This document shows positions 7,431-54,139 of a stretch of 64,000 nt of DNA, piece after piece. The position numbers and the translations under genes are program-made. Source of the DNA: Pseudomonadota bacterium (lineage in GTDB: Bacteria; Bdellovibrionota; Bdellovibrionia; Bdellovibrionales; Bdellovibrionaceae); the NCBI GenBank assembly GCA_041178425.1, contig JBEGVH010000040.1, forward strand, positions 32,001 to 96,000, read 5' to 3'. The notes beneath the pieces were generated by a model that was given only the letters and a program-made list of their open reading frames with translations, was not told the origin of the DNA and searched no databases. The first letter of the stretch is position 1; each line of letters begins with the position of its first letter.

Positions 7431-8636
7431 TTATCCTTGTTTAAAAAGTTTTTGGCCCGGATAGATTCCTTGGTCTCCAGCCACTCTCGTGGCCACCAGG
7501 GTTACAAGGATAACAAAGGGTGTAATATTCCATCCAAAATACTCTATGGCCAGAACAGCACAGGTCCAAGGGGTCTTTGCCGCTGAAGCGAAAAGTGAAA
7601 CAAAACCGATTGCTGCAAATAGAAATATTGGCTGATCGAGGAATTGAGCGATGACGCTTCCCGTGGTCGCGCCAATAAAAACGAGAGGGATAAATTCTCC
7701 TCCCTTAAAACCTGTGGCGAGTGCAATTATTGTTAGAAAAAACTTAATAATGGGTGTGTCCCAAGTTGGCGCAGCAATAAAAGTTGTGCGAATGGTTTCG
7801 AGGCCAAGCCCCTGGTAACGTTCGAGGGGAAATACCAAATAAAGAGCCAAAAGAATTGAACCACCTAGGAAAGCTCTCCAAGACGGACTGATGGTTTTCA
7901 AGAGATGTTCGGCAAAATGCATAATGCGGACGTGAGCTCTAGAAATCAATCCGATGACAAAAGAGAAAACAATCAAACTCATCAATAAAGATAAATTTAT
8001 TTCGGGAAATGAGACGAGCTGAGGTTCAAAATGGGGCGACTTCATTGCAACGGACGTTGCCCATGCAACAAAGCTTGCAATAAAGCATTCTAGCACTACC
8101 GTTTTTTCAATATGACCAACGACGATAACCTCCAAAGCGAAAATGGCTCCAGCAACAGGTGCGCCGAGAGCCGCTCCAAATCCGGCACTCAAAGCAGCCA
8201 TTAAAACCCATCGTCGTTCTTTGATCTTTATATGAAAGTATTTGGCTATTCGGTCGGCTGTAGCAGCCGACATTTGTAGGGCCGTTCCCTCGCGCCCGAC
8301 GGAGGCTCCGACCAGGTGGGAGAGAAGTGTTGTGAGGTAGATGAGTGGGGCCATGGCGAACGGAGCTATTTGCTGGGGTTTGTGAATTTCCTCAAGAACT
8401 AATTTTATCCCTTTCTCTGCGCCAAAGCCGAAGGATCGGTACAGCCAGGGAGTGGCGAGTCCGACCAAGGGTAGCCCCAAGATGAAATAGGGATGCTCCT
8501 GACGCTCTATGGTGATCCATTGAAGGGTAATGAGAAAAAGAGCCACTAAAATGCCTGAGACGAGGCCAATGATTCCACTGACCGTGTACGCCTTCATTTT
8601 TGCGGGAGATGCTAGGTGCTTGAATTGATTTTTCAT
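7431..8636 (-). CDS. CLC-family anion transporter, CLC-F (fluoride exporter)-like
   Basis: GREGT signature, GFKGGEFIP, multiple TM helices, no CBS domains. Confidence 0.85.
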   Translation of the reverse strand: MKNQFKHLASPAKMKAYTVSGIIGLVSGILVALFLITLQWITIERQEHPYFILGLPLVGLATPWLYRSFGFGAEKGIKLVLEEIHKPQQIAPFAMAPLIYLTTLLSHLVGASVGREGTALQMSAATADRIAKYFHIKIKERRWVLMAALSAGFGAALGAPVAGAIFALEVIVVGHIEKTVVLECFIASFVAWATSVAMKSPHFEPQLVSFPEINLSLLMSLIVFSFVIGLISRAHVRIMHFAEHLLKTISPSWRAFLGGSILLALYLVFPLERYQGLGLETIRTTFIAAPTWDTPIIKFFLTIIALATGFKGGEFIPLVFIGATTGSVIAQFLDQPIFLFAAIGFVSLFASAAKTPWTCAVLAIEYFGWNITPFVILVTLVATRVAGDQGIYPGQKLFKQG

Positions 8637-8731
8637 GGGTTGTTAACTAACGCAAAAGAGGGCGTGGAGGCAATCAATGATTCCGATGGGTTAGACTCTA
8701 AGTGTGTGATTTTGAGAGTTGTGGCAAAGGT

Positions 8732-8795
8732 GGGGTCTGTCCCCAAAAAAGCGGCCGGGGAAGGGAAAGGGGCCGGGGAAGGGGGGTCTGTCCCC
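8732..8795 (+). repeat. Doublet of GGGGTCTGTCCCC motifs enclosing a G-rich tract
   Basis: Copies at 8732-8744 and 8783-8795; a direct repeat GGCCGGGGAAGGG lies between them (8753-8765, 8771-8783). Confidence 0.75.
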
Positions 8796-8857
8796 AAGAG
8801 GTGTGACGGGACAAGTCGAAGGGTGAAAAAGAGGGGGGAATTGTTTATTCAAGTGCG

Positions 8858-11368: not shown

Positions 11369-11417
11369 GGTTCCGCTTGCTGGATGCGCGGGCGATGCCC
11401 CTATTCTCTGTGAACAA

Positions 11418-36477: not shown

Positions 36478-37938
36478 TCATAGGCTTATATAAAGCATCA
36501 TTCGACTTTCGTCGAACTTTTGTGGTGCGCCGATGGCGTTCACTGCATCCACATGAACCGATTCATATTTTGCACCTAGCTTCCAGCTCTTTTTCATTTG
36601 AAAGCGGCGAGTGTAATGAAGATTCAGCCCCATGTGTGATTTCACCACTTTGGTTCCTGCAGGTTGAGATTCAAATTTTAATCCCAGCTCGTCGTTGGCA
36701 CTCAAATTATATTTAGCAATTAGACCACCACCGAAGTGCCCCGTTTGCAGGGCAAAGCCACTTAATTGGTGGGTGTAGTTTCGGTAGGCTCCGCCCACAA
36801 CGGGAATCAAAGTCAATTTTTTGAGATCAATCGAGTAGCCCAAGTTTCCGTATCCAAGAAAAGAATCGAGGCGATTGGTTTTTTGCGACATTGGAAGTGT
36901 GGTAGAGAATCCAGATTCAAAAATAAGTCTGCCCCAAATCGGTGCGCTCATGGTGAACATTTGCAGACTGAGCTCCGAGTCGGTGAGGGTGGATGTGCCT
37001 ACGGTGGACTGGTCAAGAGCAAAAGTCATACTGCTGTTGCCGATGCCAAAGTAAACTTCAAAATAAGAGATGAGCATCTCTAATTCATCCGCTTTTTTTT
37101 GCAACTCTCTGCTGCTTTCGCTCATATCTTTATTTTTTTTCTTCAGATCGGCGAGGGCGTCTTTGAGTGAGCGATTCTCTTTTTGTAACTCTTCGAGCAT
37201 TTTAAGGGCGGCTAACTGTTCAAGATTGATTGAAACTAAGTTAATCTTGTAGTTTTTACCTTTGAACCCAAAAGTCACGTTGCCAATGATACCACCCTGT
37301 TGTTCGGTGTCGGGAATTTCAAAAAAACGCCAGCGCTCGCCTTTACCAAGAATATCAAAAAACGTCGTCGAATCGATGTCTACTGATCGTGGAAACGACA
37401 AAGTGAGAGCCTTGTTGCCACTGGGTCTTAGTACGCAGTGCACCCCAATGGGGAAGGTTGTTTTTTCTGAGTCAGTGGAGAGTACTACGTCAGGAAAGTT
37501 TTTGGTGCATCCATCTTGAACGATGGTCGGATTTTCAAAGGTTTTGACCGCGAGCATTTTGGTGGCGGCACCGTTTTGTCGATTCACTAAGATTTCTTGT
37601 TCTATGTCTTGAGCGGCCAGAAAAAGGGTGCCATCTTTAAATGTGGCGCTTCCTTGCTGAGATTGCACAGAGGCCATAGAAAACTCGGGTGGTATAGCCA
37701 CTTTCGCTTTGTATGTGAGGGCTTTGACTTCTTTGTTGCCGTCTTTAGCGACAACCTCAAATTCCTCCTTCTCCTCAATCACAGAAAACAACATGGGTTT
37801 TTTGACCACTTTTCCCTGATCAAGTTCAATTAAGAAGAATTGCAATTTAGCCTGAACGACTGTCGAAAGGCAAAAGGCAAAAAGAAAGATCGTATTTCGA
37901 ATGGAGGATACTAATAAAACGTTTTTAAATTGTCTCAT
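36478..37938 (-). CDS. Exported protein: beta-rich N-domain, coiled coil, putative C-terminal outer-membrane barrel
   Basis: Signal peptide; heptad stretch LEELQKENRSLKDALADLKKKNK...; aromatic alternating strands ending RMMLYISL. Confidence 0.6.
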   Translation of the reverse strand: MRQFKNVLLVSSIRNTIFLFAFCLSTVVQAKLQFFLIELDQGKVVKKPMLFSVIEEKEEFEVVAKDGNKEVKALTYKAKVAIPPEFSMASVQSQQGSATFKDGTLFLAAQDIEQEILVNRQNGAATKMLAVKTFENPTIVQDGCTKNFPDVVLSTDSEKTTFPIGVHCVLRPSGNKALTLSFPRSVDIDSTTFFDILGKGERWRFFEIPDTEQQGGIIGNVTFGFKGKNYKINLVSINLEQLAALKMLEELQKENRSLKDALADLKKKNKDMSESSRELQKKADELEMLISYFEVYFGIGNSSMTFALDQSTVGTSTLTDSELSLQMFTMSAPIWGRLIFESGFSTTLPMSQKTNRLDSFLGYGNLGYSIDLKKLTLIPVVGGAYRNYTHQLSGFALQTGHFGGGLIAKYNLSANDELGLKFESQPAGTKVVKSHMGLNLHYTRRFQMKKSWKLGAKYESVHVDAVNAIGAPQKFDESRMMLYISL

Positions 37939-38168: not shown

Positions 38169-40235
38169 ATGTGGCTACCTAGTTTTTATGGGATCATTAA
38201 ACGACTTACGGTAACTCTGAGAGTTGGCCCCGAAGTCATTTTGGGGGTGATGTTATTGTCGCTCGTTGCTTGTCAGCCGCAAAAAAAAGAAGAGGCAAAT
38301 AACTCGACCCAAAACTCACTGTCTCCGATTGAGAATGACGACGGAACCATTGATGCCCCTGTGGGAACCAAAGATTGTGCACTCAACGGTTCTAATTCTT
38401 CGGTCTGTGTGCTTTCTAAGGATTCCTATTTTTACAAGCAAGAAAACGGTGGTCGCAATCCAGAGGTTAAGGGTCCGTTGGTTTTTAAAGAGAGAACCAT
38501 TCAGTCTCTGCCCGATGGTTGGGTCGCGGCAATGACATCGGCTTCTTTTACCGATCCCAACTTGAAAGCCTCAAATATCCGAAGAGGCATTACCATTTTT
38601 GGAGTGACTGGAACAGTCAACTCGGATCATCCGCTTCCCTGTAATTTAGCGACGATGCCTTTCAGTGAGGCCTCGTGCTTGCTTTCGTCGGGCTTATTTG
38701 CTTACACGAGTGAGTACGGTGGACGCGCGAATGTTTGTTCTATCACCAACGGCTCCCAGCCAGAAAACTGTTGGCTCAACAATTCAAATACCTATTTTCT
38801 TTCAAATCAATTAGTCACCCTGATTAATCGTTGCAGTGCAAACGACGTCGATAGTTCCATTCCGCTCGCTGGTCAGTGTTGGACTCCGGCGGGTCCTTTT
38901 GTTTATACGCAGGCTTACGGTGGGCGTTCGACCCTCTGTAAAACAGATGAAAGTGCCAATGCGACAGCCTGTTGGGCTGAAAGCCTCAACGAAACAAACA
39001 AAGGCATCATTGCCTCTTCGAATACGCAGTCGTGGTGTAATTGGAATGAAAAAACGACTTCTACCTGCAAGGTGAGAATCAACGTAACGATCAATCCTGG
39101 TGATAGTCAGACGCCAGCCAGTCTGCCCTATGGGTATGTGTATCCGCTGCAATACGGGGGGCGAAGTAAGTACTGTTCAAAAAATAGCGACGGAAAGTGC
39201 TGGTTAGCGGTCGAAAAATCACAGCTCGAATCAAACCTCAAACCCGAGATCATTAAAGCGGGAGTTGCCATTTTTGGGGTCGTCGGAAAATTTAAGGGTG
39301 AAGGCGCGTGGAAGTCGGGCGCCCATCGGGATTTAGTGACGAGCCCTCTAGCAATTTCTGATGAGAGTTTTGTTTATGGTGGGGATCGGGACAAAGACAC
39401 CGGTTTCCCCGATGGCTATCGAGAGGTGCCCATGTCGGAGCTCGACGACGAAGGCACGTATTCAAACTCTGTTCTTCCTGTTGATAGAACGGGCTGGGGA
39501 AGCCTCACGTGTGGAACAGGATTAGATGCACAGGGGAATCCGGCGCCGCTACCTGCAGGTTTTGATAGTTGGAGCTTTCGTGCTCGTATGGCGGATTGCG
39601 GAGACGTTTTTGGTACGGCGGCCGTGTGGAACGGCACGACCAACGGAAATGCTGGTCAATCCAAATGGAAGCTTGTCATAAGAACGGGTGATCTCAGAAG
39701 TGGTAAGGGGCGTGAGGTTTGGCTCGATGAAAATACCGGTTTGCTTTGGAGCTCGCTCATATCAACGGCAACGAACTGGTGTAAGGCCTCGGGAAGCAAT
39801 AATATTGCTGGCAATAGTGCGCTTGAAAATGATCCTAATGATATTTGTGATAGCGCCGCTTATCAGAATCTCGCTGGCAATGCGGTGAGTGCCTGTTTTG
39901 AAGGAGATGGATTTAGCACCACGGATTCAACGCTGAGTAATGATGGCAAAGCCAACTTGTTAAAATCTTCGACAACCCTGCCGGTGGCATGGAGACTTCC
40001 TACTATTTACGATTTTGATGTGGGTGAATACAATGGGATGCGCTTTGTATTGCCCGATATGGGAGTCGCATTGAAGGGGATTCCGGGTACATTCTATGAG
40101 TGGACGGCAACAGTGAGTAGCTCAAATTCTAGAGAGGCGTGGGTGGTGCCGTCCCTTCTTGGTGGCCACGGAAAAATAGATCGCTCAATGACTGCGAGGG
40201 TGAGATGTATTGGTCGCGCCAATATTTTAGAATAA
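38169..40235 (+). CDS. Cys-rich lipoprotein with C-terminal DUF1566 (Lcl / C-type-lectin fold)-like domain
   Basis: Lipobox LVAC; VWLDENTGLLWS, WRLPTIYD, WTAT, VRCIGR; two NIxxGxxIFGVxG motifs; four YxYxxxxGGR repeats. Confidence 0.78.
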   Translation: MWLPSFYGIIKRLTVTLRVGPEVILGVMLLSLVACQPQKKEEANNSTQNSLSPIENDDGTIDAPVGTKDCALNGSNSSVCVLSKDSYFYKQENGGRNPEVKGPLVFKERTIQSLPDGWVAAMTSASFTDPNLKASNIRRGITIFGVTGTVNSDHPLPCNLATMPFSEASCLLSSGLFAYTSEYGGRANVCSITNGSQPENCWLNNSNTYFLSNQLVTLINRCSANDVDSSIPLAGQCWTPAGPFVYTQAYGGRSTLCKTDESANATACWAESLNETNKGIIASSNTQSWCNWNEKTTSTCKVRINVTINPGDSQTPASLPYGYVYPLQYGGRSKYCSKNSDGKCWLAVEKSQLESNLKPEIIKAGVAIFGVVGKFKGEGAWKSGAHRDLVTSPLAISDESFVYGGDRDKDTGFPDGYREVPMSELDDEGTYSNSVLPVDRTGWGSLTCGTGLDAQGNPAPLPAGFDSWSFRARMADCGDVFGTAAVWNGTTNGNAGQSKWKLVIRTGDLRSGKGREVWLDENTGLLWSSLISTATNWCKASGSNNIAGNSALENDPNDICDSAAYQNLAGNAVSACFEGDGFSTTDSTLSNDGKANLLKSSTTLPVAWRLPTIYDFDVGEYNGMRFVLPDMGVALKGIPGTFYEWTATVSSSNSREAWVVPSLLGGHGKIDRSMTARVRCIGRANILE

Positions 40236-42205
40236 TCTTGCTAGCGACCCTCGTGTGTGTTGGTAGCGGATGCGCGAAGCCAACAGCCACAGAGGACGAT
40301 AGCCTATTAAAGCCAGAGGAGACGGCCATCGCGAGCCCGTTGCCGCGCACCAAGTGCACCGAAGGTGAGAAAGCCTCTGCGCGCTGTATTGTGAACTCCT
40401 CGGAGAGTTTTTCTTATACGTCGTCGTTTAATGGTCGAAATGTCTTTGGTAATAACCTCGAAGGTAACGAAGGATCGGCGTCAGTGACTGTGCCCAAAGG
40501 CTTTTATCAAAGCAAATTTGTGAGCGTAAAAGACCTTGATTTTGTCGCCGCCAATATCGTGAGAGGCGTCAGTATTTTTGGCTTGGTGGGTGATTTGGAT
40601 GCGACGCAGATTCCAGATTGTACCGCCGAGGCCGTCGATTCTGGAGTTGCAAACACCACGAGTTGTCGGTTCACCGCCTCCGGAAAGTACGCCTATCAGA
40701 GCTCTTTTGGTGGAAGAAGTCAGGATTGTTCTATTCAAACAACGCTGGCAGATGGAACCACGGTGAAGGGTCAGTGTTGGCTTAGAAATACCGAACGGTT
40801 ATACGCTTATGAAGAGAGGCTCGACTACCCGGAGTGCAACTTGAACAGTCAGGCCGGCTATTCTTGTAAAACAGGTCCTTCCACTTATCTTTACAATCAG
40901 GCCTATGGAGGGCGAGATATTATTTGCCCGACCAACAAGGTGGTTAATTACAAATGTTTCGTTAAAGATCCCAACTTTGCTGTATACTCGATAATTCCCT
41001 GCAAAGAAAATCCAGAGGTTGATTCGGCCATCAACAACTACGCCTGTTTTCCATCGAGTATCGGGACGTGGGTTTATGATGTTCCCTTTGGGGGGCGATC
41101 TCAGAACTGTGAAGACAATAATAATGGTAATTGTTATTTTCAATTCAGCACCAAAGCGCAGTCATCGGTTAACTTAACGGATGAAAACATCAAAGCAGGA
41201 GAGACGATCTTTGGAGTGATGGGAAGCTTTATCACTCAGGGCTTTTATTGGGGCAGTGGGGCTCACCGAGATGCGGGCGATAAAAGAATGGTTTACCAAA
41301 AGCCACCAGGACCGGTGCCTAATCCTGCGCCCTACATTGAGGCCGAGGCAAGTTTTGGCACCTCACAAACAACACTACCAACAAACTACCGCTTTGTACC
41401 TAAAATTGCGACTGATACCGAAGCTCCCGTAGTCGCAAAAATGGTGAATAGAGTTGGGTGGGGTACTACCGAGTGTGGAGTGGATGTGAGCTCTGACACC
41501 ACAGCGAATAGAACGGTGTTGGAAAAGCGCATTCTCAATTGCGCGGCCAATGCAACGGTCGGGAGCGGCGCGACTTGGGATGGCACCACCAAAGGAAATG
41601 CCGGTCAGGGCGTTTGGAAGCTTGTCACCAGAAAAAACATCAGTGGTTCTATGTATGAAGTGTGGTTAGATTCATCGACCGATCTCCTTTGGAGCGGAAA
41701 GGTCTCAATCCCAACAGGACTTAATTGGTGTAAAGCTTCGGGAAATAGTTTTAGCACTAAAATCGATGAAAAAATGCGCGAAAACGACGCCTCGGGCATT
41801 TGTAATTCAAGCACCTATCAGAATAATGGACTCAATCATCCGATTAGTGCGTGCACTGAAGGTTTTGCCGGTTACTTAGCGTCTGACGATGATTCTTCCA
41901 ATGGGTTCTTGAGCACGGGAACCTTTCAGAATGGAAAAGCGGGTTTAAAAACGGTGGCGCCCTCGCTCAAGGCACAAGGGCGCATTTTTTGGCGTATTCC
42001 CACCATTTACGATTACATGCTCGCCAATCATAACGGGCTTCGCTATGTGCTTCCAGACGCGGGGCCGAATCAAGGAGCCGAAGAGTGGACGGCCACAACT
42101 TATTCGAGGGATCGAAGCATGGCCTGGACCTATAACTCCACCAACGGACTTCGTCGGGTTCAACCTAAAACCTATAATTATAACGTGAGATGCGTGGGAC
42201 GGTAG
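40205..42205 (+). CDS. Cys-rich lipoprotein with DUF1566-like domain, paralog of the upstream gene
   Basis: Lipobox GSGC; VWLDSSTDLLWS, WRIPTIYD, WTAT, VRCVGR; same internal repeats. Confidence 0.78.
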   Translation: MYWSRQYFRIILLATLVCVGSGCAKPTATEDDSLLKPEETAIASPLPRTKCTEGEKASARCIVNSSESFSYTSSFNGRNVFGNNLEGNEGSASVTVPKGFYQSKFVSVKDLDFVAANIVRGVSIFGLVGDLDATQIPDCTAEAVDSGVANTTSCRFTASGKYAYQSSFGGRSQDCSIQTTLADGTTVKGQCWLRNTERLYAYEERLDYPECNLNSQAGYSCKTGPSTYLYNQAYGGRDIICPTNKVVNYKCFVKDPNFAVYSIIPCKENPEVDSAINNYACFPSSIGTWVYDVPFGGRSQNCEDNNNGNCYFQFSTKAQSSVNLTDENIKAGETIFGVMGSFITQGFYWGSGAHRDAGDKRMVYQKPPGPVPNPAPYIEAEASFGTSQTTLPTNYRFVPKIATDTEAPVVAKMVNRVGWGTTECGVDVSSDTTANRTVLEKRILNCAANATVGSGATWDGTTKGNAGQGVWKLVTRKNISGSMYEVWLDSSTDLLWSGKVSIPTGLNWCKASGNSFSTKIDEKMRENDASGICNSSTYQNNGLNHPISACTEGFAGYLASDDDSSNGFLSTGTFQNGKAGLKTVAPSLKAQGRIFWRIPTIYDYMLANHNGLRYVLPDAGPNQGAEEWTATTYSRDRSMAWTYNSTNGLRRVQPKTYNYNVRCVGR

Positions 42206-42209
42206 CAGG

Positions 42210-44501
42210 ATGAAACGACGAATCTTTAATTTAACATTCATCTCTTTTTCTTACCTCACGCTGGCCTCTTTTTTGAGTGCTTGTTCAGGGAATTTAAAAG
42301 ATCCCGTCATCAATATTGGTGATTCTCCCGACGGAATTTTGTATACGCGCCCAACCCCTTCACCCACACCAACGGGTCGTCCCGGTTCTGGTGGAGATGG
42401 AGTAGGCGGGGATTGTTATGAGAATCCCGATATCGGACGTTTCTGCGAAGCGGATGGTGGCACCTTTGGAAATGACGCGGGTGTGATCACCGTTAATCTC
42501 CTTAACTTCAATGGGGGTGAGGCCGTTAAAGGCGGTGGTAGTTACTTTATCAAATATAAAACGACGATCACTTATGAAAAATTCAAATCTGTCTATAGTA
42601 AAATCGAATTAAAAAAACAGTCGGAGCCCGACACCGCTTGGAAAGTGGTAGGCGAAAAAATCACCTCGAACGATGGGGAGTTGGTTGAGTTCAATTGGAA
42701 TGTGTGTCCGAGCCTCCAAGTGGAAAGTTGTGAAAGAACCAATTCCGGAGAACTAGTGTCCGTCAACGGAAGTGATTATCAGCTTCGCGTAACCAGTCAA
42801 CGATTGGCCAATCAGTCGGGATCAAAAGTATCAACGGGGACTTTTGCCATCGATTCGGCCTCTCCGGTTCTATCCACAAAGCAAACCGGAGCCTCGCCCA
42901 AAGGGTTTGTGGCCAAAGTGACTCAACCAAACAATGGTTTTATCAATCTAGAGCTCAAGGGTGCCACTGACAATTTGAGCACCATCAAGTCCATTTGCTT
43001 AAAAACCAATTCGGCTGCTCCAGAAGAGTCAAATGGATGTTGGATACCGGTGACAACATTTAAGGCCGTTAAAACTCCCATTGCGGGTGGCAATGAGCTG
43101 AACATTGAGACCTTACCGGTGTTTGTAGGGTTCGGCGCGATTGGTATAAATTATTATGTGTGGCTGATGGATGTGGCTGGCAATATTTCGAAAATGTCAG
43201 AGACTCTACTGGATGATGTTGTGAAGTATGGGATCAACGAAAAAGATGTGTTGTCGCTAAGTCGCGCGGCTATTAGTTTTCCTGGACGGGATTCATTTTG
43301 GCAGCCTGGCTCTGCCTCTCAAACAACTCCTAGTTACAGTGGTAAAATCACGCTGAAGACAATTGCGGGGGCGAGTGCGGTTCAATATTCGGGTCACCTC
43401 GATGATAACTTTATGGCTGATCCGGGCTCTCTGGTAGTGACCTCAGCAGGGGTGGCTTATATTAAGAGTCCAGACGGGGTCGGAACGACTAAGGGTGTAT
43501 TAAAATTCGACCTCAATGCCGGAGAATACAAAGTTCTCTTAGCTCAAGGCAACCACACGGTGGGAGCTGCGAACGGTACCACCGCTAAAGTTTATGATCC
43601 TTTGCGTATTGCTCTGGATTCGAATGAAGACTTGTGGGTGATGGATAAAAAAGAAGACGGCAAAGTGGTCATCTCCAAGGTCACGGGGCTCGCGGGCGAT
43701 TCTCCTGTGATGGCCGATGTTATTGGTGGTGGTGTGAATACAAATACGGCCGATAAGGCGGCCCTCGATCTGCAAATTGATTACTCTGACGACTTTCGAC
43801 ACTATGGAACCTTCGCGGCTCTTCCTGGGGGGCTGCTGGTTTTTTCAAGTGACTCTCCCGTCAGGGCATTGGCGCCCCTCGCCCCGACCGCTAGGTTTCA
43901 ACTGAGGGTGTATTACCCAGAGCGAGCGTTGGCGTCGCAAATTGCAACGATTTTGATTTCATCGACAGACCTACGAGGTGCGGAACTCAATACCCCTAGT
44001 GGATATCCGCTCAAGGCGGTGGAGGGTTATGGGACTTTTGGCGTTTCGTATGACTGGAGTCGACACGATGTTGGATATCTCTACGGTCGAGGCTGTGCTC
44101 CCATGGTAGTAGGTTCTGGCCGGACCTGTTCTGAGTTGGTCAATATGGTGTTTGATCATAAGGGACAGCTAGTTTCTTTTTTACCAACCCAAGGACCTTG
44201 GCTTTGGGGAAATGAGACTCTCACGGTCTCAAAGCAAAAAAATCTCTATGCGCTCAATGCTTACCGCGGTCGTCTGAGTGTTTTAAGAGGCGCTGCGCTC
44301 GACGAAAACTGGATTGATGTTTTTGCAACGTCGGGGGTGGGTGCTAATTACTGTGCGAACGGCACCGTGGCTGGTCAATGTGCCGTGCGCGTAAAAGATG
44401 TATTTATCGGCCCGACCGGACGGGTTTATTTTATTGATGAGCAGAGACTGAGATTTATTGATGAGGATGGAAGTGTGCAATCGCTTCTGTCGTTTGAATA
44501 A
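42210..44501 (+). CDS. Surface lipoprotein with Ig-like and beta-propeller (NHL-like) regions
   Basis: Lipobox LSAC; IDSASP, DVAGNIS, PGSLVVT, PLRIALDSNEDLWV, VYFIDEQRLRFID. Confidence 0.7.
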   Translation: MKRRIFNLTFISFSYLTLASFLSACSGNLKDPVINIGDSPDGILYTRPTPSPTPTGRPGSGGDGVGGDCYENPDIGRFCEADGGTFGNDAGVITVNLLNFNGGEAVKGGGSYFIKYKTTITYEKFKSVYSKIELKKQSEPDTAWKVVGEKITSNDGELVEFNWNVCPSLQVESCERTNSGELVSVNGSDYQLRVTSQRLANQSGSKVSTGTFAIDSASPVLSTKQTGASPKGFVAKVTQPNNGFINLELKGATDNLSTIKSICLKTNSAAPEESNGCWIPVTTFKAVKTPIAGGNELNIETLPVFVGFGAIGINYYVWLMDVAGNISKMSETLLDDVVKYGINEKDVLSLSRAAISFPGRDSFWQPGSASQTTPSYSGKITLKTIAGASAVQYSGHLDDNFMADPGSLVVTSAGVAYIKSPDGVGTTKGVLKFDLNAGEYKVLLAQGNHTVGAANGTTAKVYDPLRIALDSNEDLWVMDKKEDGKVVISKVTGLAGDSPVMADVIGGGVNTNTADKAALDLQIDYSDDFRHYGTFAALPGGLLVFSSDSPVRALAPLAPTARFQLRVYYPERALASQIATILISSTDLRGAELNTPSGYPLKAVEGYGTFGVSYDWSRHDVGYLYGRGCAPMVVGSGRTCSELVNMVFDHKGQLVSFLPTQGPWLWGNETLTVSKQKNLYALNAYRGRLSVLRGAALDENWIDVFATSGVGANYCANGTVAGQCAVRVKDVFIGPTGRVYFIDEQRLRFIDEDGSVQSLLSFE

Positions 44502-44516
44502 AGGGTTGGAGGAACA

Positions 44517-47500
44517 ATGATGTTCGCAATCAGAAAAATGGCGTACTCGCTGGCATGCCTCGCTTTGGTGGCCTGTTCTGGACAGGTTCAAGAAGGGCAG
44601 CACGATATGCTTTATTCTATTTTGCCGCCTTTGCCTCCGACGGGTGATCCTGGCCTGAATTTTCCGATCGACCCTGAGTTGAATGTTCCTGGGTTGAACA
44701 TGAAGTCTTTTGTAGGGGGCGAACACATTCACTGGGGCACCCATAAGATTTCGTGGTTTTTAGAGCCTCTCGATACAAAAGACGAAGGGATGTACTCAAC
44801 ACAATTAGAGTTCTCCCGTGACAGTGGAACCACCTGGACGACGATCGTGGAATCGGTTCCGAGTGTAGGTGCCAAGCTGATGTCGTATGATTGGGTCGTC
44901 GGTCAAGACCCCGAGTGGGAGGGGATTAATTATCGAGTGCGCATTACTACAAAAAATGTTTATGGCGTTAAATATGTTAAAGAATCGGAATCTGATTTCA
45001 CCGTTGATAACACGGCTCCGAACTTGGTCTCTGACGCTTTAAAAGTCAACAGCAAGCAAAGCACTCTGGTGCCAGGGCAGGGCTGGACTAAAATTGAAAT
45101 CGAACGGAGCTACATGTCCGTTGACTTTAAGGCCGAAGACGCCTTGAGCCCCGTTTCTGCCTATTGTATTAAAATGGGTTCGTCGGTGGCTCCCACCGAG
45201 AACGATGAGTGTTGGAAGATACTCAACAACATGAATATCGAACCCGGGCTCTCTGTTGAAGTAAGAGGCGCCCCTGCTTTTGTGGGCTTCGTTGCCTTGA
45301 ACAACGAATTAAGAGTATGGGTCAAAGATATGGCGGGCAATGTTTCTGCTCTTTATGCTGGTTCAGGTGTTTACAATAAGGATCGGGCTCCGATTGTTTT
45401 CAATCCGGCATTACCTCCCGAAGTCACTAACGTTATTGCGGCCAATGTGGTCAACCCGTCGGTTCCCCCTGCTCGAGGGGAGTTGACGACGGGTTCGGGC
45501 CTCAATCGAATTTTTATCAAATGGCGTATTCGCCCTAAAGGCAAGGGCCAACTGGCAGCCACCAAGGGCGTAAAATTAGAGTACACCACAGACGAAGAAA
45601 CTTTTCTGCCAGTCACTGAAGATGAATTAAAAGATAAAGACAACTCGGCCAATGGTTATTGTTTTTCGTCGGGTGACACCGATATTTACTCTGGATGTTA
45701 CACCTGGGTAGGATCCAATTTGCCGACCAGCTATTTTCGTGTGCGGGTGGTTGCCACTAACGATGTGGGATTAGTGACCGCCTCGTCCAGTGATCCCCTC
45801 AATTCTGGATCGTTTCGCAATATTGCTGGTAACACCGACCCTGGAATAGGCAATAGCGCCGAGAGTGCCATCTACTCGTATAGTGGGGGTGGGGACTCTA
45901 GCTGGTCGAACCCGGGATCCATCGTGGTCACGCGCAAAGGACGCATTTATATTCGAGATGATCGTATGGGCATCTTAGTGGTTGATCCTGCCGATGGTGT
46001 GAACCGCGTGTTTATCAAGAGAGGAAACACCTCTCTTGCTGTGCAACCGGGCGAAGATGTTGATGTGACTCAAGCCACAACAGTGCCTTATCGGATTGCG
46101 CTTGATTACAAAGACCGCTTACTGATTCTCGAAAAAAACCGTGTTCGTCGGGTGAGTGAAAATAATATTATTTCTACTATCATTGGAATCAAACCGGGCC
46201 CCAATGGCACCATTGAGAGTGGTTTTGCTCGTTTTAAAGATAATGGATTAGTGTCTGGTGACGGGAAAGCCAATTGGTGGGAGAAAAAAACCGATGGAAC
46301 CTACAAGCATTTATCTCCAGAGGGCTGCTTTTCGGTTTACACCACGCCGGGAATTCCCGCACAATACTACGATTTTACAAATACGGGCGCCGCACAGGTT
46401 ATGTGGCCTCTTCCTAACGGCGATATTTATTTTTCATCGAGTAACTTTTGGGGTCAAAAAGTTCAATCGGCAGCCGATGCCGCGCCTTATTTTGCTATTT
46501 ACAAAGAGAATGACCTCAAGGGTAACCCTGTTAAGCGTGTTTATCCGCTTCGCCTTTGTGGATTAGGTCTCAATGATGGCATTAAACAAGATCCGTATTA
46601 TCCTTATGATGACATCTATATTTCTTCTTTTCCGGGAATTAACTTTAATCCTTATAACAGCATGGTCGAGAGCTTTTCTCTTAGGGTTCATAAACCCGTG
46701 AGTGGGGGAGCCATTTATTATGGAGCTTCTTTTAATCCGAGAAGTGGTCGTTCGCGGGGCGCCAACACGATTTATCCGCTGCCACGATCGGCGGCCGGAA
46801 ATGTAACCTACTGGGGGGCGCCAGCCCTCATTCCCACTCGAAAAGGGGGATTGTATTTTAATCACAACTATTCAAGCTTAGCAGGAACATTTAAATACAA
46901 TGCCAGTTATAACCAATGGGAACCGATCTTCAAAGCATGGAACAACGGTCAGTGCTACGATGGAACCAAAACTAATGAGTGTTATGTTGATAATCTCGAT
47001 GTTTATGTGACCGAAGACAATGTGACATACTTTTTTGATCGTGGTCGAATACGCGCAATATCCAACAACAAAATAAAAACTATTTTTGGTCAGTCCCGTA
47101 AATACGGGGACGGAGAAGTTCCCTCATCGGCGCGTTTGAATATGGTGGAGTATCTTGGTGTGTGGGGCAATGATAATCGCATCATCGTTTATGACACGCG
47201 AGAGTATGTGGCGCGGGAGATTCGACCGGGGGTGAGTATTTCGCGCATTATGGGATCGAATGGTGAAGGTAAATGTGAAGTCGTTAATGGGGAGTTCAGC
47301 TGCACCACAGGATATTACTACTGGGGTTCTCCGAACGCGGTGATTGGCAATCAATTTGATAATAACACCAAAGTAGGGTCGCTTGCGATGGATGCCTCGT
47401 GGTGGGGAATTCACTACTGGGATTGGGCTACGGGCTTTGTGGTCGATCGCGACAATGGGGACATATATTCTTATTCAGGGGGCGGGCCGTTTCATGGCAT

Positions 47501-48452
47501 TGCTCGATACTTTAATAATCCCAATTACAATGGGTCAGGCATCGCCAAGCGCCAAGGGCAAATGGTCATAGGCCATTATAATAGCCCCTGGAAGTACTTT
47601 GTCACGAAGGGTGAAAATTCTTGCGATAATAAGTCGGGTATGGCCTGTTACTTGGGGGGATCTCCCGACTCCGGAAACGGTCTCTATGGAGGTGGAAATT
47701 ACGCCGTCGTGGTGCCGGCAATGGGAGTGGATAAGGTCACTAATAAAAAAACGATCATCGCCACTACTCACGACTGGAGCTTTAATAATTACAATGATAA
47801 AAATAATTGGATCGGCTCGCACAAGCATTGTTTTATGAAAGCCATTCGTCTTCCAAACAATACACCAACGGGGGCGCCTATTGCGGCAGGTGCTGATCTC
47901 AACTCCTCGTTGGTGCAACACGTGATGGGGAGCAATGATCGTTGTGTAGGTTATGGTGGAAATGGCGAAGCTCTTCCGGCCGATGGAACAGTAATGACCG
48001 ACAATCCCAATTTTCCAAGTTGGCACTCAACAACGATTCCTCATCGTTTTATGACAGAGGGAAATGAAGATGCGTTGCTAATGAGTTGGCGAGGGTCGAG
48101 TCGAATCGTTAAGGTGCCTTTTGTTCGAAGCAGTGTGGCCGGAGTGGGTGAAGGGGTGATCACCGGAAGTGCGGCGACGGTAACAGTTGCGAATCTCCCG
48201 CGTGGTATCTTAGGATACAATTATCGGTTCTCTGGAGCGGGCAATATGCAATTCTATTATTGTGCAACAAATGGCCTCCTCTATAAGTACGAAGGAGGCC
48301 TAGAAACTCAATTAACCTTCCCAACGGGGTCTGGAATATCCTGTTACAACAGGGGTAAATCCATTGAGTGGAATAAAACAAAAACCGCCTTTTATTTTAT
48401 TTATACTCAGAACGGATTGACGGGAATCGGCGAGTATTACGTTGGCCCATAA
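44517..48452 (+). CDS. Large surface lipoprotein (1311 aa) with Ig-like and beta-propeller regions, adhesin-like
   Basis: Lipobox LVAC; VDNTAP, DMAGNVS, PGSIVVT, PYRIALDYKDRLLI, YFFDRGRIR; Gly/Asn/Tyr/Cys-rich. Confidence 0.75.
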   Translation: MMFAIRKMAYSLACLALVACSGQVQEGQHDMLYSILPPLPPTGDPGLNFPIDPELNVPGLNMKSFVGGEHIHWGTHKISWFLEPLDTKDEGMYSTQLEFSRDSGTTWTTIVESVPSVGAKLMSYDWVVGQDPEWEGINYRVRITTKNVYGVKYVKESESDFTVDNTAPNLVSDALKVNSKQSTLVPGQGWTKIEIERSYMSVDFKAEDALSPVSAYCIKMGSSVAPTENDECWKILNNMNIEPGLSVEVRGAPAFVGFVALNNELRVWVKDMAGNVSALYAGSGVYNKDRAPIVFNPALPPEVTNVIAANVVNPSVPPARGELTTGSGLNRIFIKWRIRPKGKGQLAATKGVKLEYTTDEETFLPVTEDELKDKDNSANGYCFSSGDTDIYSGCYTWVGSNLPTSYFRVRVVATNDVGLVTASSSDPLNSGSFRNIAGNTDPGIGNSAESAIYSYSGGGDSSWSNPGSIVVTRKGRIYIRDDRMGILVVDPADGVNRVFIKRGNTSLAVQPGEDVDVTQATTVPYRIALDYKDRLLILEKNRVRRVSENNIISTIIGIKPGPNGTIESGFARFKDNGLVSGDGKANWWEKKTDGTYKHLSPEGCFSVYTTPGIPAQYYDFTNTGAAQVMWPLPNGDIYFSSSNFWGQKVQSAADAAPYFAIYKENDLKGNPVKRVYPLRLCGLGLNDGIKQDPYYPYDDIYISSFPGINFNPYNSMVESFSLRVHKPVSGGAIYYGASFNPRSGRSRGANTIYPLPRSAAGNVTYWGAPALIPTRKGGLYFNHNYSSLAGTFKYNASYNQWEPIFKAWNNGQCYDGTKTNECYVDNLDVYVTEDNVTYFFDRGRIRAISNNKIKTIFGQSRKYGDGEVPSSARLNMVEYLGVWGNDNRIIVYDTREYVAREIRPGVSISRIMGSNGEGKCEVVNGEFSCTTGYYYWGSPNAVIGNQFDNNTKVGSLAMDASWWGIHYWDWATGFVVDRDNGDIYSYSGGGPFHGIARYFNNPNYNGSGIAKRQGQMVIGHYNSPWKYFVTKGENSCDNKSGMACYLGGSPDSGNGLYGGGNYAVVVPAMGVDKVTNKKTIIATTHDWSFNNYNDKNNWIGSHKHCFMKAIRLPNNTPTGAPIAAGADLNSSLVQHVMGSNDRCVGYGGNGEALPADGTVMTDNPNFPSWHSTTIPHRFMTEGNEDALLMSWRGSSRIVKVPFVRSSVAGVGEGVITGSAATVTVANLPRGILGYNYRFSGAGNMQFYYCATNGLLYKYEGGLETQLTFPTGSGISCYNRGKSIEWNKTKTAFYFIYTQNGLTGIGEYYVGP

Positions 48453-48462
48453 GGTGATTTAG

Positions 48463-48595
48463 GAGCGCCATCCAAGACTGACTCTAGTTCTTCGGAAAAC
48501 GAGTTCGGAGCGCAGCCGGAGGGAACTTGTTCCCGAGGGGAGCAGCGCTTGTTTGAAGTTTTACGAACAACTAGAGTCAGTCCTGGATGGTGCTC
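48463..48595. repeat. Intergenic cruciform / REPIN-like element
   Basis: 38-bp inverted arms (48463-48500 / 48558-48595, 4 mismatches) with internal GGGAAC-TT-GTTCCC hairpin. Confidence 0.8.
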
Positions 48596-49513
48596 TTATT
48601 CTTTTTTAATCGAGGTTTCGTCTTTCATTTTGATGCGTCCCTCGTCGTCTACATTAAATTGATAGTGGGTCTTCTGTTGCCCCGTTTTATTGAGTTTGAT
48701 CGTTGGCATTTTAATGTTTGAAAGACTGCTCACCAAACCGGTTTCGACGACGGCGTCGGTTAGGTTTCCTGTTTGATTGTATAAGGTCACGGTGACTTCG
48801 TAGTCACCAGGGGCTAATTTATTTGTGCTCCAGATTTCGGCGCCAGGCCCATAGCGAGAGTCAAGTACGAGTTCTCCTGCGGTGTCGGGGTACTTTCTAT
48901 TTTTAAAGTCATAAAGTTTACCAGAAGGTGTTTTGACCGTTAAGTCGATGTCGTGTTTTTCGGTGTCCCATTTGGTGAAAACAATAAGAAAATTATTCGA
49001 TTTAAGTTCTTCGAGTCGCTTAGCCAATTTCGCTTCGTCGGCAAGCTTCTTTTTGAGTTGTTTTTCGAGCTCTTCAATTTTTTTCTTGAGGGGGGCAGGG
49101 TCTTCAAATGCTTGTGTGGCGGCAATTTCGCGTGATTGAGTTTCGGTTTTGCTCGCAAGATCAGTAATCTGTAATTTTTGTTCCTCGAGTAACTTTTCAA
49201 GTTCGGCAATCTTATTCTCTAATTGAGTGATCTCTTCTTTTTGTTTGCTAACGGTGTCGCGAAGCTCTTTAAGTTCTTTGTCGGTGATTTTAACCATCAC
49301 GGGAGGAGCCTCTTTTTTTGCTTTGTCATTCATAGCATCGGCGATTTCAGCGAGGGCTTGGGCCCCATTGGGGTTTTCGGCGGCAAGAGAGTACATTAAG
49401 ACAAAAAAGCCAAACAGAAGTGTCATTAAATCGGAGTAGCTAACGAGCCATTTTTCATCCACATGAGGCGCATGATTGGAGTTGTGCGACGACTTCTTTT
49501 TGCTCATCCCCAT
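48596..49513 (-). CDS. MotB-like protein: MotB TM segment, coiled coil, YfaP/DUF2135-like C-terminal domain (no OmpA domain)
   Basis: WLVSYSDLMTLLFGFFVLMYS with Asp28; heptad stalk; KWDTEKHDIDLTVKTPSG...GELVLDSRYGPGAE...PGDYEVTVTLY. Confidence 0.8.
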   Translation of the reverse strand: MGMSKKKSSHNSNHAPHVDEKWLVSYSDLMTLLFGFFVLMYSLAAENPNGAQALAEIADAMNDKAKKEAPPVMVKITDKELKELRDTVSKQKEEITQLENKIAELEKLLEEQKLQITDLASKTETQSREIAATQAFEDPAPLKKKIEELEKQLKKKLADEAKLAKRLEELKSNNFLIVFTKWDTEKHDIDLTVKTPSGKLYDFKNRKYPDTAGELVLDSRYGPGAEIWSTNKLAPGDYEVTVTLYNQTGNLTDAVVETGLVSSLSNIKMPTIKLNKTGQQKTHYQFNVDDEGRIKMKDETSIKKE

Positions 49514-50388
49514 TAGGCACCTTTTTTCTTGTCTTTGGCACCCTTGAGATCGTAAACGCCGGCATCCATGGGCACCCCATAGACTTCGAAGAAAGATTGT
49601 TTGACCGTTTCTTTTAGTCGCATTTTTTCTTGAAAACTAACCTTGCTCTCGATGAGTTCAAAGATATGGGCGGCAGTGTATCCCTTTTTAATCATATAAA
49701 CGGTATCGATAATCATGTCTCTGAGTGACGACTGCTCTTCCGCTTGTCTCATGGCAAAATCGCTGAGAGGGAGCACCACAAAGTTTGCAACTCCAATTCC
49801 CCAGAATGTTGCGACAAGCGCGACGGCCATGGCTTTTCCAATTTCAGACACGCCACCGGCACCACCCACTTGTTGCATCATCTCAATCATCCCGGCAGAG
49901 GCACCAAGGAGTCCGAGAGCCGGAGGAAACTTGGCAATAGCCACAAGGATTTTGGCATCATCAAAGTACTTACTCACGACGGTTTCTTTTTTATCATGGA
50001 GAAGCTCCGAGAGTTGATCTTCGGTGAGTTCGCTTTTTGCGAGGGCGGCAAAGGCATCTTCGGCAAAAGGGTGTTTTAGTCGCGTTCGTTTCATCGGGTC
50101 GATGGCATAGGCGGCAGTTCCCTTAACCAGCTCAACAGCGACATCATAGCGTGTAATAATTTTTTTGCGAAACAAAAAGCCCATGATCACAAAGTCATAA
50201 ATATCTTTGAGTTTTGAGAGAGGAAACGCAAGAAATGTGACACCAAGTGTGCCAAGGACAACGAGCATGAGGGCGTGCGCATTCAAATACATTCCCGGGC
50301 TTGCAGCGTGCTTGATAACGCCAAAGTAAACAACGCCCGCAATGATGATGCCACCAATCCAATTGCTAAATCTATCGATTGATCCCAT
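49513..50388 (-). CDS. MotA-like proton-channel subunit
   Basis: ALMLVVLGTLG, FPPALGLLGASAGMI, MAVALVATFWGIGVANFVVLPL; stop overlaps the motB-like start (TAATG). Confidence 0.88.
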   Translation of the reverse strand: MGSIDRFSNWIGGIIIAGVVYFGVIKHAASPGMYLNAHALMLVVLGTLGVTFLAFPLSKLKDIYDFVIMGFLFRKKIITRYDVAVELVKGTAAYAIDPMKRTRLKHPFAEDAFAALAKSELTEDQLSELLHDKKETVVSKYFDDAKILVAIAKFPPALGLLGASAGMIEMMQQVGGAGGVSEIGKAMAVALVATFWGIGVANFVVLPLSDFAMRQAEEQSSLRDMIIDTVYMIKKGYTAAHIFELIESKVSFQEKMRLKETVKQSFFEVYGVPMDAGVYDLKGAKDKKKGA

Positions 50389-50474
50389 AGACTCCCTTGA
50401 GATTTAATTGTCTCGTAAAATCCTAGTTTTGTCCATGGATTGCCAATGGTGATTGAGGATTTTGGATGTTTATC

Positions 50475-51317
50475 TTAAGACCTTCGATAGACTTTAAGTT
50501 CTACAGACTCTTTGCTTGAAATGACGTGACGGGGATAATGGACCCGCGAAAGAAAGAGTCCAGATGGTCTTGCTGGTCTACCAATCATTCGACGGTTGGT
50601 CATCGACAAGAGTCGAGTGAGTGCTTCAGCAGTTTCCTGTTTTTCTTGAAGTCTGAGTTGCGTGCCTACGAGATTGCGAATCATTTGCCGTAAGAATCCA
50701 TTGCCAGTGATTTCGAAGACAAAAAGATTTTTATGAGGTTGAGTCCAGCGCGCGCGATAGATTTTTCTTACTGAACTTTTAGGAGGTCGACCGCCCACAG
50801 ACTGGAATGTTTGAAAGTCGTGTTCACCGATCAGAACTTTTGAATAACTTTGAAGGCGACGAAGGTTGAGCGGGCGTGGATACCAAAGTGTGAAACGGCA
50901 GTGAATAGGCGAAGGCGTCTCGTCGTTCCAAACATAATAGCGATACGTTTTTGCATAGGCCGAACGATTCGCATGAAAGGCAGAGGAAACGACCCAAGCT
51001 CTCTTCGCACTGATGGTGGGAGGAAGAAGTGTTCGAAGTGCTTCAACGAGCGGTATTGTCTGGGGGTCCTTACTCACAGAAAAATGCACGTTTTGATCGA
51101 TTGCATGCACTCCAGAGTCAGTGCGACTGGCGGCCACACAGTGAATGGGCTCTTTGTAAATTTTTGAGAGAGCCCTCTCGAGAATTGTTTGCAGACTCAC
51201 CAAATTTTTATATACAAGTTGGGATTGCCAACCACAGAAACTGCTACCATCGTAAGCGATTCGAAGGCGAACCCGAAAAGGATTTTGAATTTTTTGTAGT
51301 TCGTCCTTGTGATTCAT
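50475..51317 (-). CDS. truA: tRNA pseudouridine(38-40) synthase
   Basis: IAYDGSSFCGWQSQ, SRTDSGVHA, KTYRY, GEHDF, GNGFLRQMIRNLVG, GLFLSRVHY. Confidence 0.95.
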   Translation of the reverse strand: MNHKDELQKIQNPFRVRLRIAYDGSSFCGWQSQLVYKNLVSLQTILERALSKIYKEPIHCVAASRTDSGVHAIDQNVHFSVSKDPQTIPLVEALRTLLPPTISAKRAWVVSSAFHANRSAYAKTYRYYVWNDETPSPIHCRFTLWYPRPLNLRRLQSYSKVLIGEHDFQTFQSVGGRPPKSSVRKIYRARWTQPHKNLFVFEITGNGFLRQMIRNLVGTQLRLQEKQETAEALTRLLSMTNRRMIGRPARPSGLFLSRVHYPRHVISSKESVELKVYRRS

Positions 51318-51473
51318 TCGCAGCTTTCAAAAAAGTAAAATTCAACTTGATGGATTTGAAGAATTCCTTCAGTTTGCATCAACGCAGTTCTAGCGGTGTA
51401 CGATATTTGCAATTGATAGACAAAGAGAAAACATCCCCTATGGGCCCAGTTTTTATAATGGAAATAATGGATT

Positions 51474-54064: not shown

Positions 54065-54139
54065 CCCCCAAAGTTAGCAATGTCATCCCTGCTGGCGAGC
54101 ACATTCTTTGCAACCCAAATAGAGCTTGCGGGAGGCTCT

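Follow-up and report, generated by a model that had tools for sequence, protein, structure and literature searches.

Introduction

Stators of the flagellar lineage (the FIT clade) are held to the cell wall by an OmpA-type anchor, a trait set out in the accessible part of PMC12505986, and in the Agl-Glt system barrels relay the action of a motor in the inner membrane to CglB, a lipoprotein adhesin (PMC9946355, accessible text). For the phylum Bdellovibrionota the available portion of PMC13104615 describes as an open problem which motor and adhesins serve gliding and how force is transmitted. Here we describe a motAB gene pair at positions 48,596 to 50,388 of a 64,000-nucleotide stretch of DNA from a member of the Bdellovibrionaceae (assembly GCA_041178425.1, contig JBEGVH010000040.1, positions 32,001 to 96,000; hereafter the window), in which MotB carries a coiled-coil stalk and a YfaP-like tip in place of the wall anchor and which is co-inherited with an outer-membrane beta-barrel protein. 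The family to which it belongs is a new form of envelope-spanning ion motor, whose probable partner belongs to a barrel family not named before. No description of this tipped-motor architecture was found in a literature search that covered few subscription papers and no supplements, and the available portions of PMC11870529, PMC11323537 and PMC11656739 discuss motAB1-3 or lineage-specific genes without mention of the tipped form. Throughout, G000 denotes the genome of the window (100% complete), C-numbers its contigs and L-numbers the loci fetched for comparison.

Results

Domain organization of the motor pair

The motor genes and the parts of MotB are as follows.

49513..50388, minus strand: motA, A subunit of 291 residues, assigned to the flagellar-stator lineage by PF01618, below-cut-off NCBIfam MotA/PomA matches, alignments and a tree
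48596..49513, minus strand: motB, B subunit of 305 residues comprising a transmembrane (TM) helix with Asp28, a coiled-coil stalk and a YfaP/TerD-like tip
49376..49456, minus strand: MotB TM helix, residues 20-46, with the invariant Asp28
48998..49282, minus strand: MotB coiled-coil stalk, residues 78-172, about 14 nm at full extension
48620..48994, minus strand: MotB tip, residues 174-298, a YfaP-like beta-sandwich of TerD fold with invariant W, H, DxD, D, GPG and E

The two open reading frames (ORFs) overlap by one base. MotA matched PF01618 above the cut-off (E 2e-17) and its best PDB sequence matches were MotA/PomA, as was its best NCBIfam match, all NCBIfam MotA/MotB matches of the pair lying under their cut-offs. 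A reading made from the letters of the window (the sequence-only reading) had proposed that MotA keeps the TM3/TM4 motifs and that MotB keeps the helix with the ion-binding aspartate, followed by about 100 residues of coiled coil and no OmpA-like domain, and each of these points is borne out. The columns of the TM3/TM4 prolines P173 and P222 read P/P in the window MotA, and MotB residues 5-56 correspond to Pfam MotB_plug (PF13677, E 6e-15). A homolog search returned 91 matches, and in an alignment of the 57 top-ranked full-length ones Asp28 was unchanged throughout (57/57). The AlphaFold2 model built with these homologs (mean predicted local distance difference test score, pLDDT, 81) contains the membrane helix, helices at 78-134 and 140-172 within a coiled coil of about 96 residues and, at 176-296, a domain made up wholly of beta strands, for which pLDDT mostly exceeds 90. 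In a Pfam scan the OmpA family (PF00691) was absent from the window MotB and from all 57 homologs, and an OmpA fold was absent among the structural matches listed for the tip.

Comparison of the tip with E. coli YfaP by HHalign gave a probability of 96.8 and a pairwise E of 2.2e-10 over 111 columns at 23% identity, and the tip profile also retrieves YfaP-type proteins from other genomes. The closest solved structures are TerD proteins (Foldseek E 7.5e-5; Z 9.4, root-mean-square deviation (rmsd) 3.7 over 125 residues), with a weak resemblance to Ca-dependent carbohydrate-binding modules (2xhh, Z 6.5). The Pfam DUF2135 model PF09906 did not match the tip in scans of the window MotB and its homologs. 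By sequence comparison the domain is thus YfaP-like and not a member of Pfam DUF2135, so that of the YfaP/DUF2135 assignment made earlier the first half stands and the second does not. A below-cut-off Pfam match to Anthrax_toxA (E 0.002) was judged to be chance, as it did not recur among the homolog families listed and represents a different fold.

A co-inherited outer-membrane barrel

Clustering of the neighbours of 38 long-match loci together with the window identified a single recurrent third gene, present at 25 of the 39 loci, which encodes a barrel protein.

36478..37938, minus strand: barrel protein of 486 residues with a signal peptide, two beta domains, a helical linker and, in the model, a 10-strand beta-barrel

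In the window this gene lies 10.7 kb downstream of motB, whilst at most paired loci the barrel is adjacent to the motor or within 1.5 kb of it, a block of lipoprotein genes mainly intervening elsewhere. The barrel fold matches OmpT (Z 20.2, rmsd 2.8, 188 residues) and OpcA, the C-terminal residue is Phe in 24 of 36 homologs, and no curated Pfam or NCBIfam family matched above cut-off. An omptin protease was considered and rejected: the fold fits, but every Asp/His column is less than 60% conserved across 36 barrels and there was no omptin Pfam match. The only invariant residues (C144, C168, G198 and K199) all fall in N-terminal domain 2, which is kept by the shortest homologs, in which domain 1 is missing. 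Because linkers may be as short as 11-12 residues, domain 2 is probably periplasmic rather than threaded through the pore, a placement drawn from sequence. A search of the ESM Atlas with the N-terminal domains gave no usable match (best template-modelling score 0.40).

Within a sample of 401 genomes from the same phylum the barrel was found in 25 of the 28 that carry a tipped motor and was not detected in any of the remaining 373, a count to which no P value is attached as alignment rows came from some of the sampled genomes, scoring was limited to four candidates in each and related genomes are not independent. The barrel profile itself matched 24 genomes, all within the 28, and the 25th (G109) was spotted beside the motor; since this profile was built from motor-adjacent barrels, the positives are partly circular and distant barrels were possibly missed. 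Where a genome has several copies, the numbers of barrels and motors agree (2/2 in G145, G285, G327 and G397, and 3/4 in G333). The correlation between tip and barrel distances (rho 0.43) is expected from linkage alone and was left unused, and a complex prediction for the tip with barrel domain 2, which scored 0.01 in both runs (mark 0.32), is evidence neither way. Over barrel domain 1 and its upstream region (window 37410-37860) dense substitutions were seen in two other runs among the first 40 rows, which suggests a variable allele.

The sequence-only reading had envisaged an ion-driven motor with a periplasmic protein partner, reached by way of a long stalk, as its output or anchor. The data support this reading, and the candidate partner is the co-inherited barrel with its conserved N-terminal domains, with which contact would be made.

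The same output on a second motor family

At five loci (L151, L152, L162, L171 and L172) an INVF(S/A)..AIDLF helix leads into the same stalk and tip, and the preceding A subunit is of the ExbB/TolQ type (GIT), branching far from MotA. All five of these loci have a barrel nearby. As the same output is carried by an ExbB/TolQ-type motor, the part that stays constant is made up of stalk, tip and barrel, while the motor can be exchanged; this swap is the strongest argument that the job of the module is a periplasmic output and not contact with FliG. The GIT tips require three label changes on a FastTree tree, but may have had a single origin. At three of the five loci (L151:7657-8091, L152:7875-8306 and L162:3172-3603) the motor is preceded by a small protein with what we take to be an FHA-like motif, a possible cytoplasmic partner.

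Distribution and integrity of the fusion

A search with the tip profile returned 158 clusters at 50% identity (E up to 1e-30). The best 150 were classified as 114 with a MotB-type helix, 15 with an ExbD/TolR-like (GIT) helix, 17 helix-less fragments and four unrelated, three MotB-type rows and one GIT-type row being assigned by eye; no OmpA motif occurred among these 150. Stalk length in 111 homologs ranges from 63 to 398 residues (median 172). Contigs of two other studies span the fusion without a gap (X2: 44968-51400; X4: 48708-49826), which together with the 114 clusters of the same architecture rules out an assembly chimera, and the fusion is not confined to one genome.

Long matches among 80 loci come from Bdellovibrionota wherever the taxon is named, and the homologs of the window's genome place it in this phylum too. 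Thirty of the 401 sampled genomes matched the tip profile, two of them through motor-less YfaP-like proteins, leaving the 28 with a tipped motor. The module is present in five of 14 genomes of genus g2 and in none of 26 of genus g4; named carriers are Ca. Bdellovibrio qaytius (homolog P0027) and Pseudobdellovibrio sp. HCB154, the latter with two copies, which makes the module possibly testable. B. bacteriovorus Bd16 was matched solely through an OmpA-type MotB and so, given also its absence from genus g4, the module cannot explain gliding phylum-wide. In another phylum (that of G401) the profile matched 17 of 301 genomes at 22 loci, which read as YfaP-type or long DUF2135-type proteins (six cut at the locus edge); as far as the loci extend no motor subunit can be seen among them, and there was no match to the barrel. 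As a lead, ESM Atlas clusters from Bacteroidota and Pseudomonadota look like the GIT-type subunit. A tipped B subunit in G193 (L170:9323-10468) has a membrane segment without the W..SY.D motif and no barrel nearby, and is possibly a decaying copy.

Lipoproteins beside the module

Four predicted lipoproteins lie between the barrel and motAB in the window.

38169..40235, plus strand: Cys-rich predicted lipoprotein, 688 residues, 21 Cys, with a C-terminal Lcl_C-like domain (weak match)
40139..42205, plus strand: paralogous Cys-rich predicted lipoprotein, 688 residues, 23 Cys, likely start 40205 (Lcl_C E 1.3e-6, below cut-off)
42210..44501, plus strand: predicted lipoprotein, 763 residues, 11 Cys, in an Ig/NHL-type cluster found beside the module
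44517..48452, plus strand: predicted lipoprotein, 1311 residues, 18 Cys (teneurin-NHL-like match, E 2.8e-4, below cut-off)

At other loci homologs are ordered motA-motB-lipoproteins-barrel, or members of other families (31-65 Cys, subtilase, Ig, Fn3 or NHL) are found. A large Cys-rich lipoprotein, defined as at least 350 residues and at least 10 Cys with the lipobox recognized by a crude regular expression, occurs within 3 kb of 18 of the 21 barrels with both flanks and of 22 of 32 overall, compared with 59 of 923 ORFs of similar size in G000 (6.4%). The barrel and the window lipoproteins matched no NCBIfam family, and no comparison with Glt-specific profiles was made.

Between the convergent genes for the last lipoprotein and MotB lies an imperfect inverted repeat (window 48460-48598; 41-nucleotide arms 88% identical, 57-nucleotide spacer, -80 kcal/mol), of which five other partial copies occur in G000 and at which read assemblies break; it resembles an element of the REP/MITE (repetitive extragenic palindrome/miniature inverted-repeat transposable element) type. 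Among the repeats listed no pair flanks the lipoprotein block as would an invertible segment, and no joints were found; a promoter scan remained at chance level and no RNA holder was listed. A 948-residue subtilase-family protein with a split catalytic domain (PF00082; window 54080-56926) is not conserved beside the module.

Proposed mechanism and the export alternative

The reading that we prefer, which we hold tentatively and at slightly less than even confidence, is of an ion-driven, envelope-spanning motor that couples to the barrel and presents or moves surface lipoproteins in the manner of Agl-Glt or GldLM. A complex of MotA5:MotB2 type in the inner membrane would conduct ions, probably protons, via Asp28, and the flux would turn the MotB pair relative to the MotA ring. 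The MotB pair would form a coiled-coil shaft spanning the periplasm and, having no wall anchor, would be the moving output, much like GldM. The YfaP-like tip may engage domain 2 of the barrel, directly or via another protein, and the barrel may be a platform that holds or unmasks large disulfide-rich lipoproteins (adhesin-like here, with a subtilase in other loci). The force of the motor would thereby control how proteins at the cell surface, which serve on surfaces or prey, are presented or moved.

Several observations weigh against this reading. Besides the partial circularity of the barrel profile, three genomes (G088, G273 and G193) have a tipped motor and no detected barrel. Stalk length, which varies six-fold, shows no correlation with the length of the barrel linker (rho -0.01, n=36), whilst all five linkers of at least 45 residues go with stalks of at most 141 (a post hoc observation on about three independent lineages). 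The lipoprotein families vary from locus to locus and are absent from the vicinity of some, the Lcl_C-like C-terminal domain also occurs in 16 module-less genomes, and the 1311-residue NHL-type lipoprotein has a homolog on contig C9 of G000. No cytoplasmic anchor for MotA is co-encoded, and as read from its ORFs G000 already has three Agl-Glt-like clusters, so that a further gliding motor is not obviously needed. These AglRQS-like clusters have large TPR-type neighbours (C30:62948-71096, C20:24629-29364 and C40:140516-145716), and by the same ORF reading G000 also has TolQRAB (C10) and two ExbBD pairs (C31 and C9).

A bolder form of the proposal, a minimal three-gene machine for surface motility or gripping of prey in which an inverted stator with MotB as rotor shaft turns or drags an outer-membrane barrel that carries giant disulfide-rich adhesins and may be driven by either of two motor families, appears unlikely.

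We also consider it unlikely that the module is an energised export or assembly device, in which the motor would pull on the N-terminal domain of the barrel in the style of TonB and move lipoproteins across or onto the outer membrane with no lateral movement. Such a device would account equally for the co-inheritance of motor, barrel and lipoproteins and for a constant three-gene core beside variable lipoprotein cargo, and the Cys-richest lipoprotein family is found solely in module-bearing genomes (10/10), though most of these supplied the alignment. However, a 10-strand barrel of OmpT size is on general grounds too narrow for folded, disulfide-bonded proteins of 70-140 kDa, and the Lcl_C-like domain occurs in genomes without the module, as noted above. 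In the accessible text of PMC9946355, moreover, CglB of Myxococcus is surface-exposed even without its barrels.

Relation to the flagellar stator

An auxiliary flagellar stator with a new anchor, in which the tip would bind wall glycan or an outer-membrane protein and MotA would still drive FliG, is distinctly improbable, although several results are compatible with it. In the window MotA, AAYAIDPMKRTRL is aligned with the RxxG(L)LxLE motif found in solved MotA/PomA chains, and the columns of E. coli R90 and E98 read A/R in a gappy loop alignment, in agreement with the proposed loss of the FliG-contacting pattern. Among 45 partner MotAs the R90 column is R in nine and K in 15, and thus basic in 24, and E98 is found in none; among comparison MotAs E98 is kept by five of 41 and R90 by 32 of 41. 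Most OmpA-bearing paralogs of Bdellovibrionota also lack E98 and therefore its loss alone does not show a motor to be non-flagellar. The earlier description of the pair as non-flagellar agrees with the R90/E98 and OmpA results, but the loss of E98 is not decisive; the window pair is probably not the flagellar stator.

In a quick MotA tree computed with no bootstrap all 45 partner MotAs fall in one clade of 52 rows (Shimodaira-Hasegawa-like approximate likelihood ratio test 99), the other seven rows pairing with a MotB that bears OmpA (two), PDZ (two) or an unassigned domain (three). G000 is itself flagellated, with FliG, nine flagellin-family matches and four MotB_plug genes, and FliG was found in all five other carriers tested. 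The motAB pair on C10, which lies beside genes read from ORFs as fliA- and flhG-like, has retained both R90 and E98, and its MotA clusters with that of E. coli. The flagellar descent of the window MotA, the presence of FliG, the basic R90 column of many partners and the weak likeness of the tip to carbohydrate-binding modules all favour a stator role, and a 2011 study by Morehouse reportedly bears a title according to which each of the three motAB pairs of B. bacteriovorus has a part in swimming. Against it, the barrel and lipoprotein linkage would be unexplained, the distribution is patchy (28/401) and no flagellar gene cluster recurs among the neighbours of tipped-motor loci. The claim that the window holds no flagellar genes was upheld for the part covered, the ORFs listed for 24000-64000. 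The same output is also carried by ExbB/TolQ-type motors, a lineage without flagellar features in the accessible part of PMC12505986.

Threonines contribute to the Na+ site of PomA, and at these columns Ala is present in 38 and 42 of the 45 partner MotAs, which favours H+; against this, the position 11 residues after the MotB Asp is M, L or I in 151 of 152, as is typical of Na+-type motors. The two sites thus point in opposite directions, and the ions conducted may be protons.

A number of other MotB- and FliG-like arrangements were observed. On C28 of G000 (7772-11381) an OmpA-type motAB is preceded by a 673-residue membrane protein whose C-terminal part weakly matches FliG_C (E 9.6e-4), possibly a stator with its own membrane-bound FliG-like target. 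A stand-alone FliG_C-like protein of 233 residues with a C-terminal coiled coil is encoded on C6 (143993-144694), and weaker second FliG_C matches occur in G145 and G333. The MotB beside the fliA/flhG-like genes (C10:47877-48773) has a degenerate OmpA region without the GHTD motif. MotB helices fused to PDZ with no OmpA, and with partner MotAs in the clade of the window MotA, were found at L057:5923-6900 and L076:5899-6972, and at L025:5974-6831, L034:5953-6789, L066:5944-6849 and L026:456-1298 the MotB helix is joined to an unassigned C-terminal domain, possibly with a PilZ-like ending, and with no OmpA match.

Sensing, defence and incidental linkage

A sensor or gated channel, whose tip would detect a ligand, Ca2+ or the state of barrel and lipoproteins and open the channel for signalling or Zorya-like defence without mechanical work, is similarly improbable. 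The invariant acidic DxD..D..E of the tip recalls Ca-binding folds of TerD type, and members of the related MotA clade pair with a MotB bearing PDZ or other non-OmpA domains. The yfaP gene also lies in what we take, from yfaS, to be an alpha-2-macroglobulin (A2M)-type operon, and we presume MagA and MagF of Pseudomonas to be YfaP-like, a name that the accessible text of their description does not use. MagA and MagF bind the macroglobulin MagD (PMC5764988, available portion). However, A2M was rejected as an obligatory partner because PF00207 had no match in G000, whilst it is present in four of four other carriers. The 291-residue MotA has no long ZorA-type tail and no effector or regulator recurs in the neighbourhoods. 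In a PADLOC scan of nine proteins no Zorya model matched the window MotA or MotB, which gave coiled-coil matches alone, and the one weak ZorA match (E 7e-4) was to a GIT-type A subunit. Elsewhere in G000 a Zorya-like arrangement was seen on C9 (149790-154813), in which a MotB-like protein that has both a long coiled coil and an OmpA-like end is accompanied by a divergent A subunit and by an FHA-like coiled-coil protein in convergent orientation.

That the motor pair merely hitchhikes on a surface island of barrel and lipoproteins, its true partner lying elsewhere, is very improbable: four fetched regions (L177-L180) have the barrel and lipoproteins away from motAB and three motor genomes have no detected barrel, but none of the 373 motor-less genomes has a barrel and the linkage persists in numerous different gene orders, despite inversions and despite the exchange of one motor family for another.

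Discussion

The tipped family is a conserved exception to the OmpA anchor of flagellar-lineage stators and appears to have taken on a role at the outer membrane. As a candidate machine the module is compact, consisting of the motor, a new family of 10-strand barrels and the lipoproteins as cargo, and the exchange of flagellar-type for ExbB/TolQ-type motors beneath a constant output offers a natural experiment in the repurposing of 5:2 motors. Ca. B. qaytius is epibiotic (10.1101/506055, available text), and a link of the module to epibiotic predation is only a lead.

With the flagellar MotAB/PomAB stators (FIT clade, PMC12505986, accessible part) the window pair shares the MotA lineage, the MotB helix with its catalytic Asp and the motA-motB gene pair. 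Unlike these stators, it has a long coiled coil and YfaP-like tip instead of the OmpA anchor, its FliG-contact charges are not conserved, and the tipped motor is linked to a barrel and lipoproteins. The tip has in common with E. coli YfaP/DUF2135 and the TerD fold a homologous beta-sandwich with the pattern W..DxDL..P.G..D..GP.E; YfaP, however, is a free periplasmic protein, whereas the window tip is fused to a motor subunit. Zorya ZorAB resembles it as a MotAB-like pair outside flagella, but the window has no ZorA tail, no OmpA-type ZorB domain and no ZorC/D/E.

ExbBD-TonB and TolQRA-Pal likewise deliver proton-driven force to outer-membrane targets, and 15 of the 150 tip homologs sit on an ExbB/TolQ-type motor. 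They differ from the module in that its loci contain no TonB/TolA transducer or plugged 22-strand receptor, and the TolQRAB and ExbBD genes of G000 are separate; neither a TonB transducer nor a TonB-dependent receptor recurs among the neighbours, a result that applies to the loci and does not cover TonB encoded elsewhere.

With Myxococcus Agl-Glt (AglRQS, GltABH and CglB) the module would share the logic of ion motor, barrel platform and lipoprotein adhesin (PMC9946355 and PMC13104615, in the portions available). It differs in a motor that is mostly of MotA/MotB type, in a B subunit that is itself the stalk with no GltG/J-type transducer co-encoded, and in a 10-strand barrel with extra domains beside which no Glt family recurs. 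GldLM/PorLM of the type IX secretion system is also a 5:2 motor in which the long periplasmic shaft of the two-copy subunit acts on an outer-membrane assembly (PMC13104615, available portion). Unlike it, the tipped motor is not homologous, has no GldKN ring or SprA translocon, and has a shaft of coiled coil and one YfaP-like domain. By analogy the module would work most like Agl-Glt and GldLM, a likeness that does not show membership in either. If the bolder and unlikely form of the proposal is true, the three-gene machine would represent a new class of envelope-spanning motor, possibly tied to epibiotic predation, to be placed next to TonB, Tol, Agl-Glt, Gld and Zorya.

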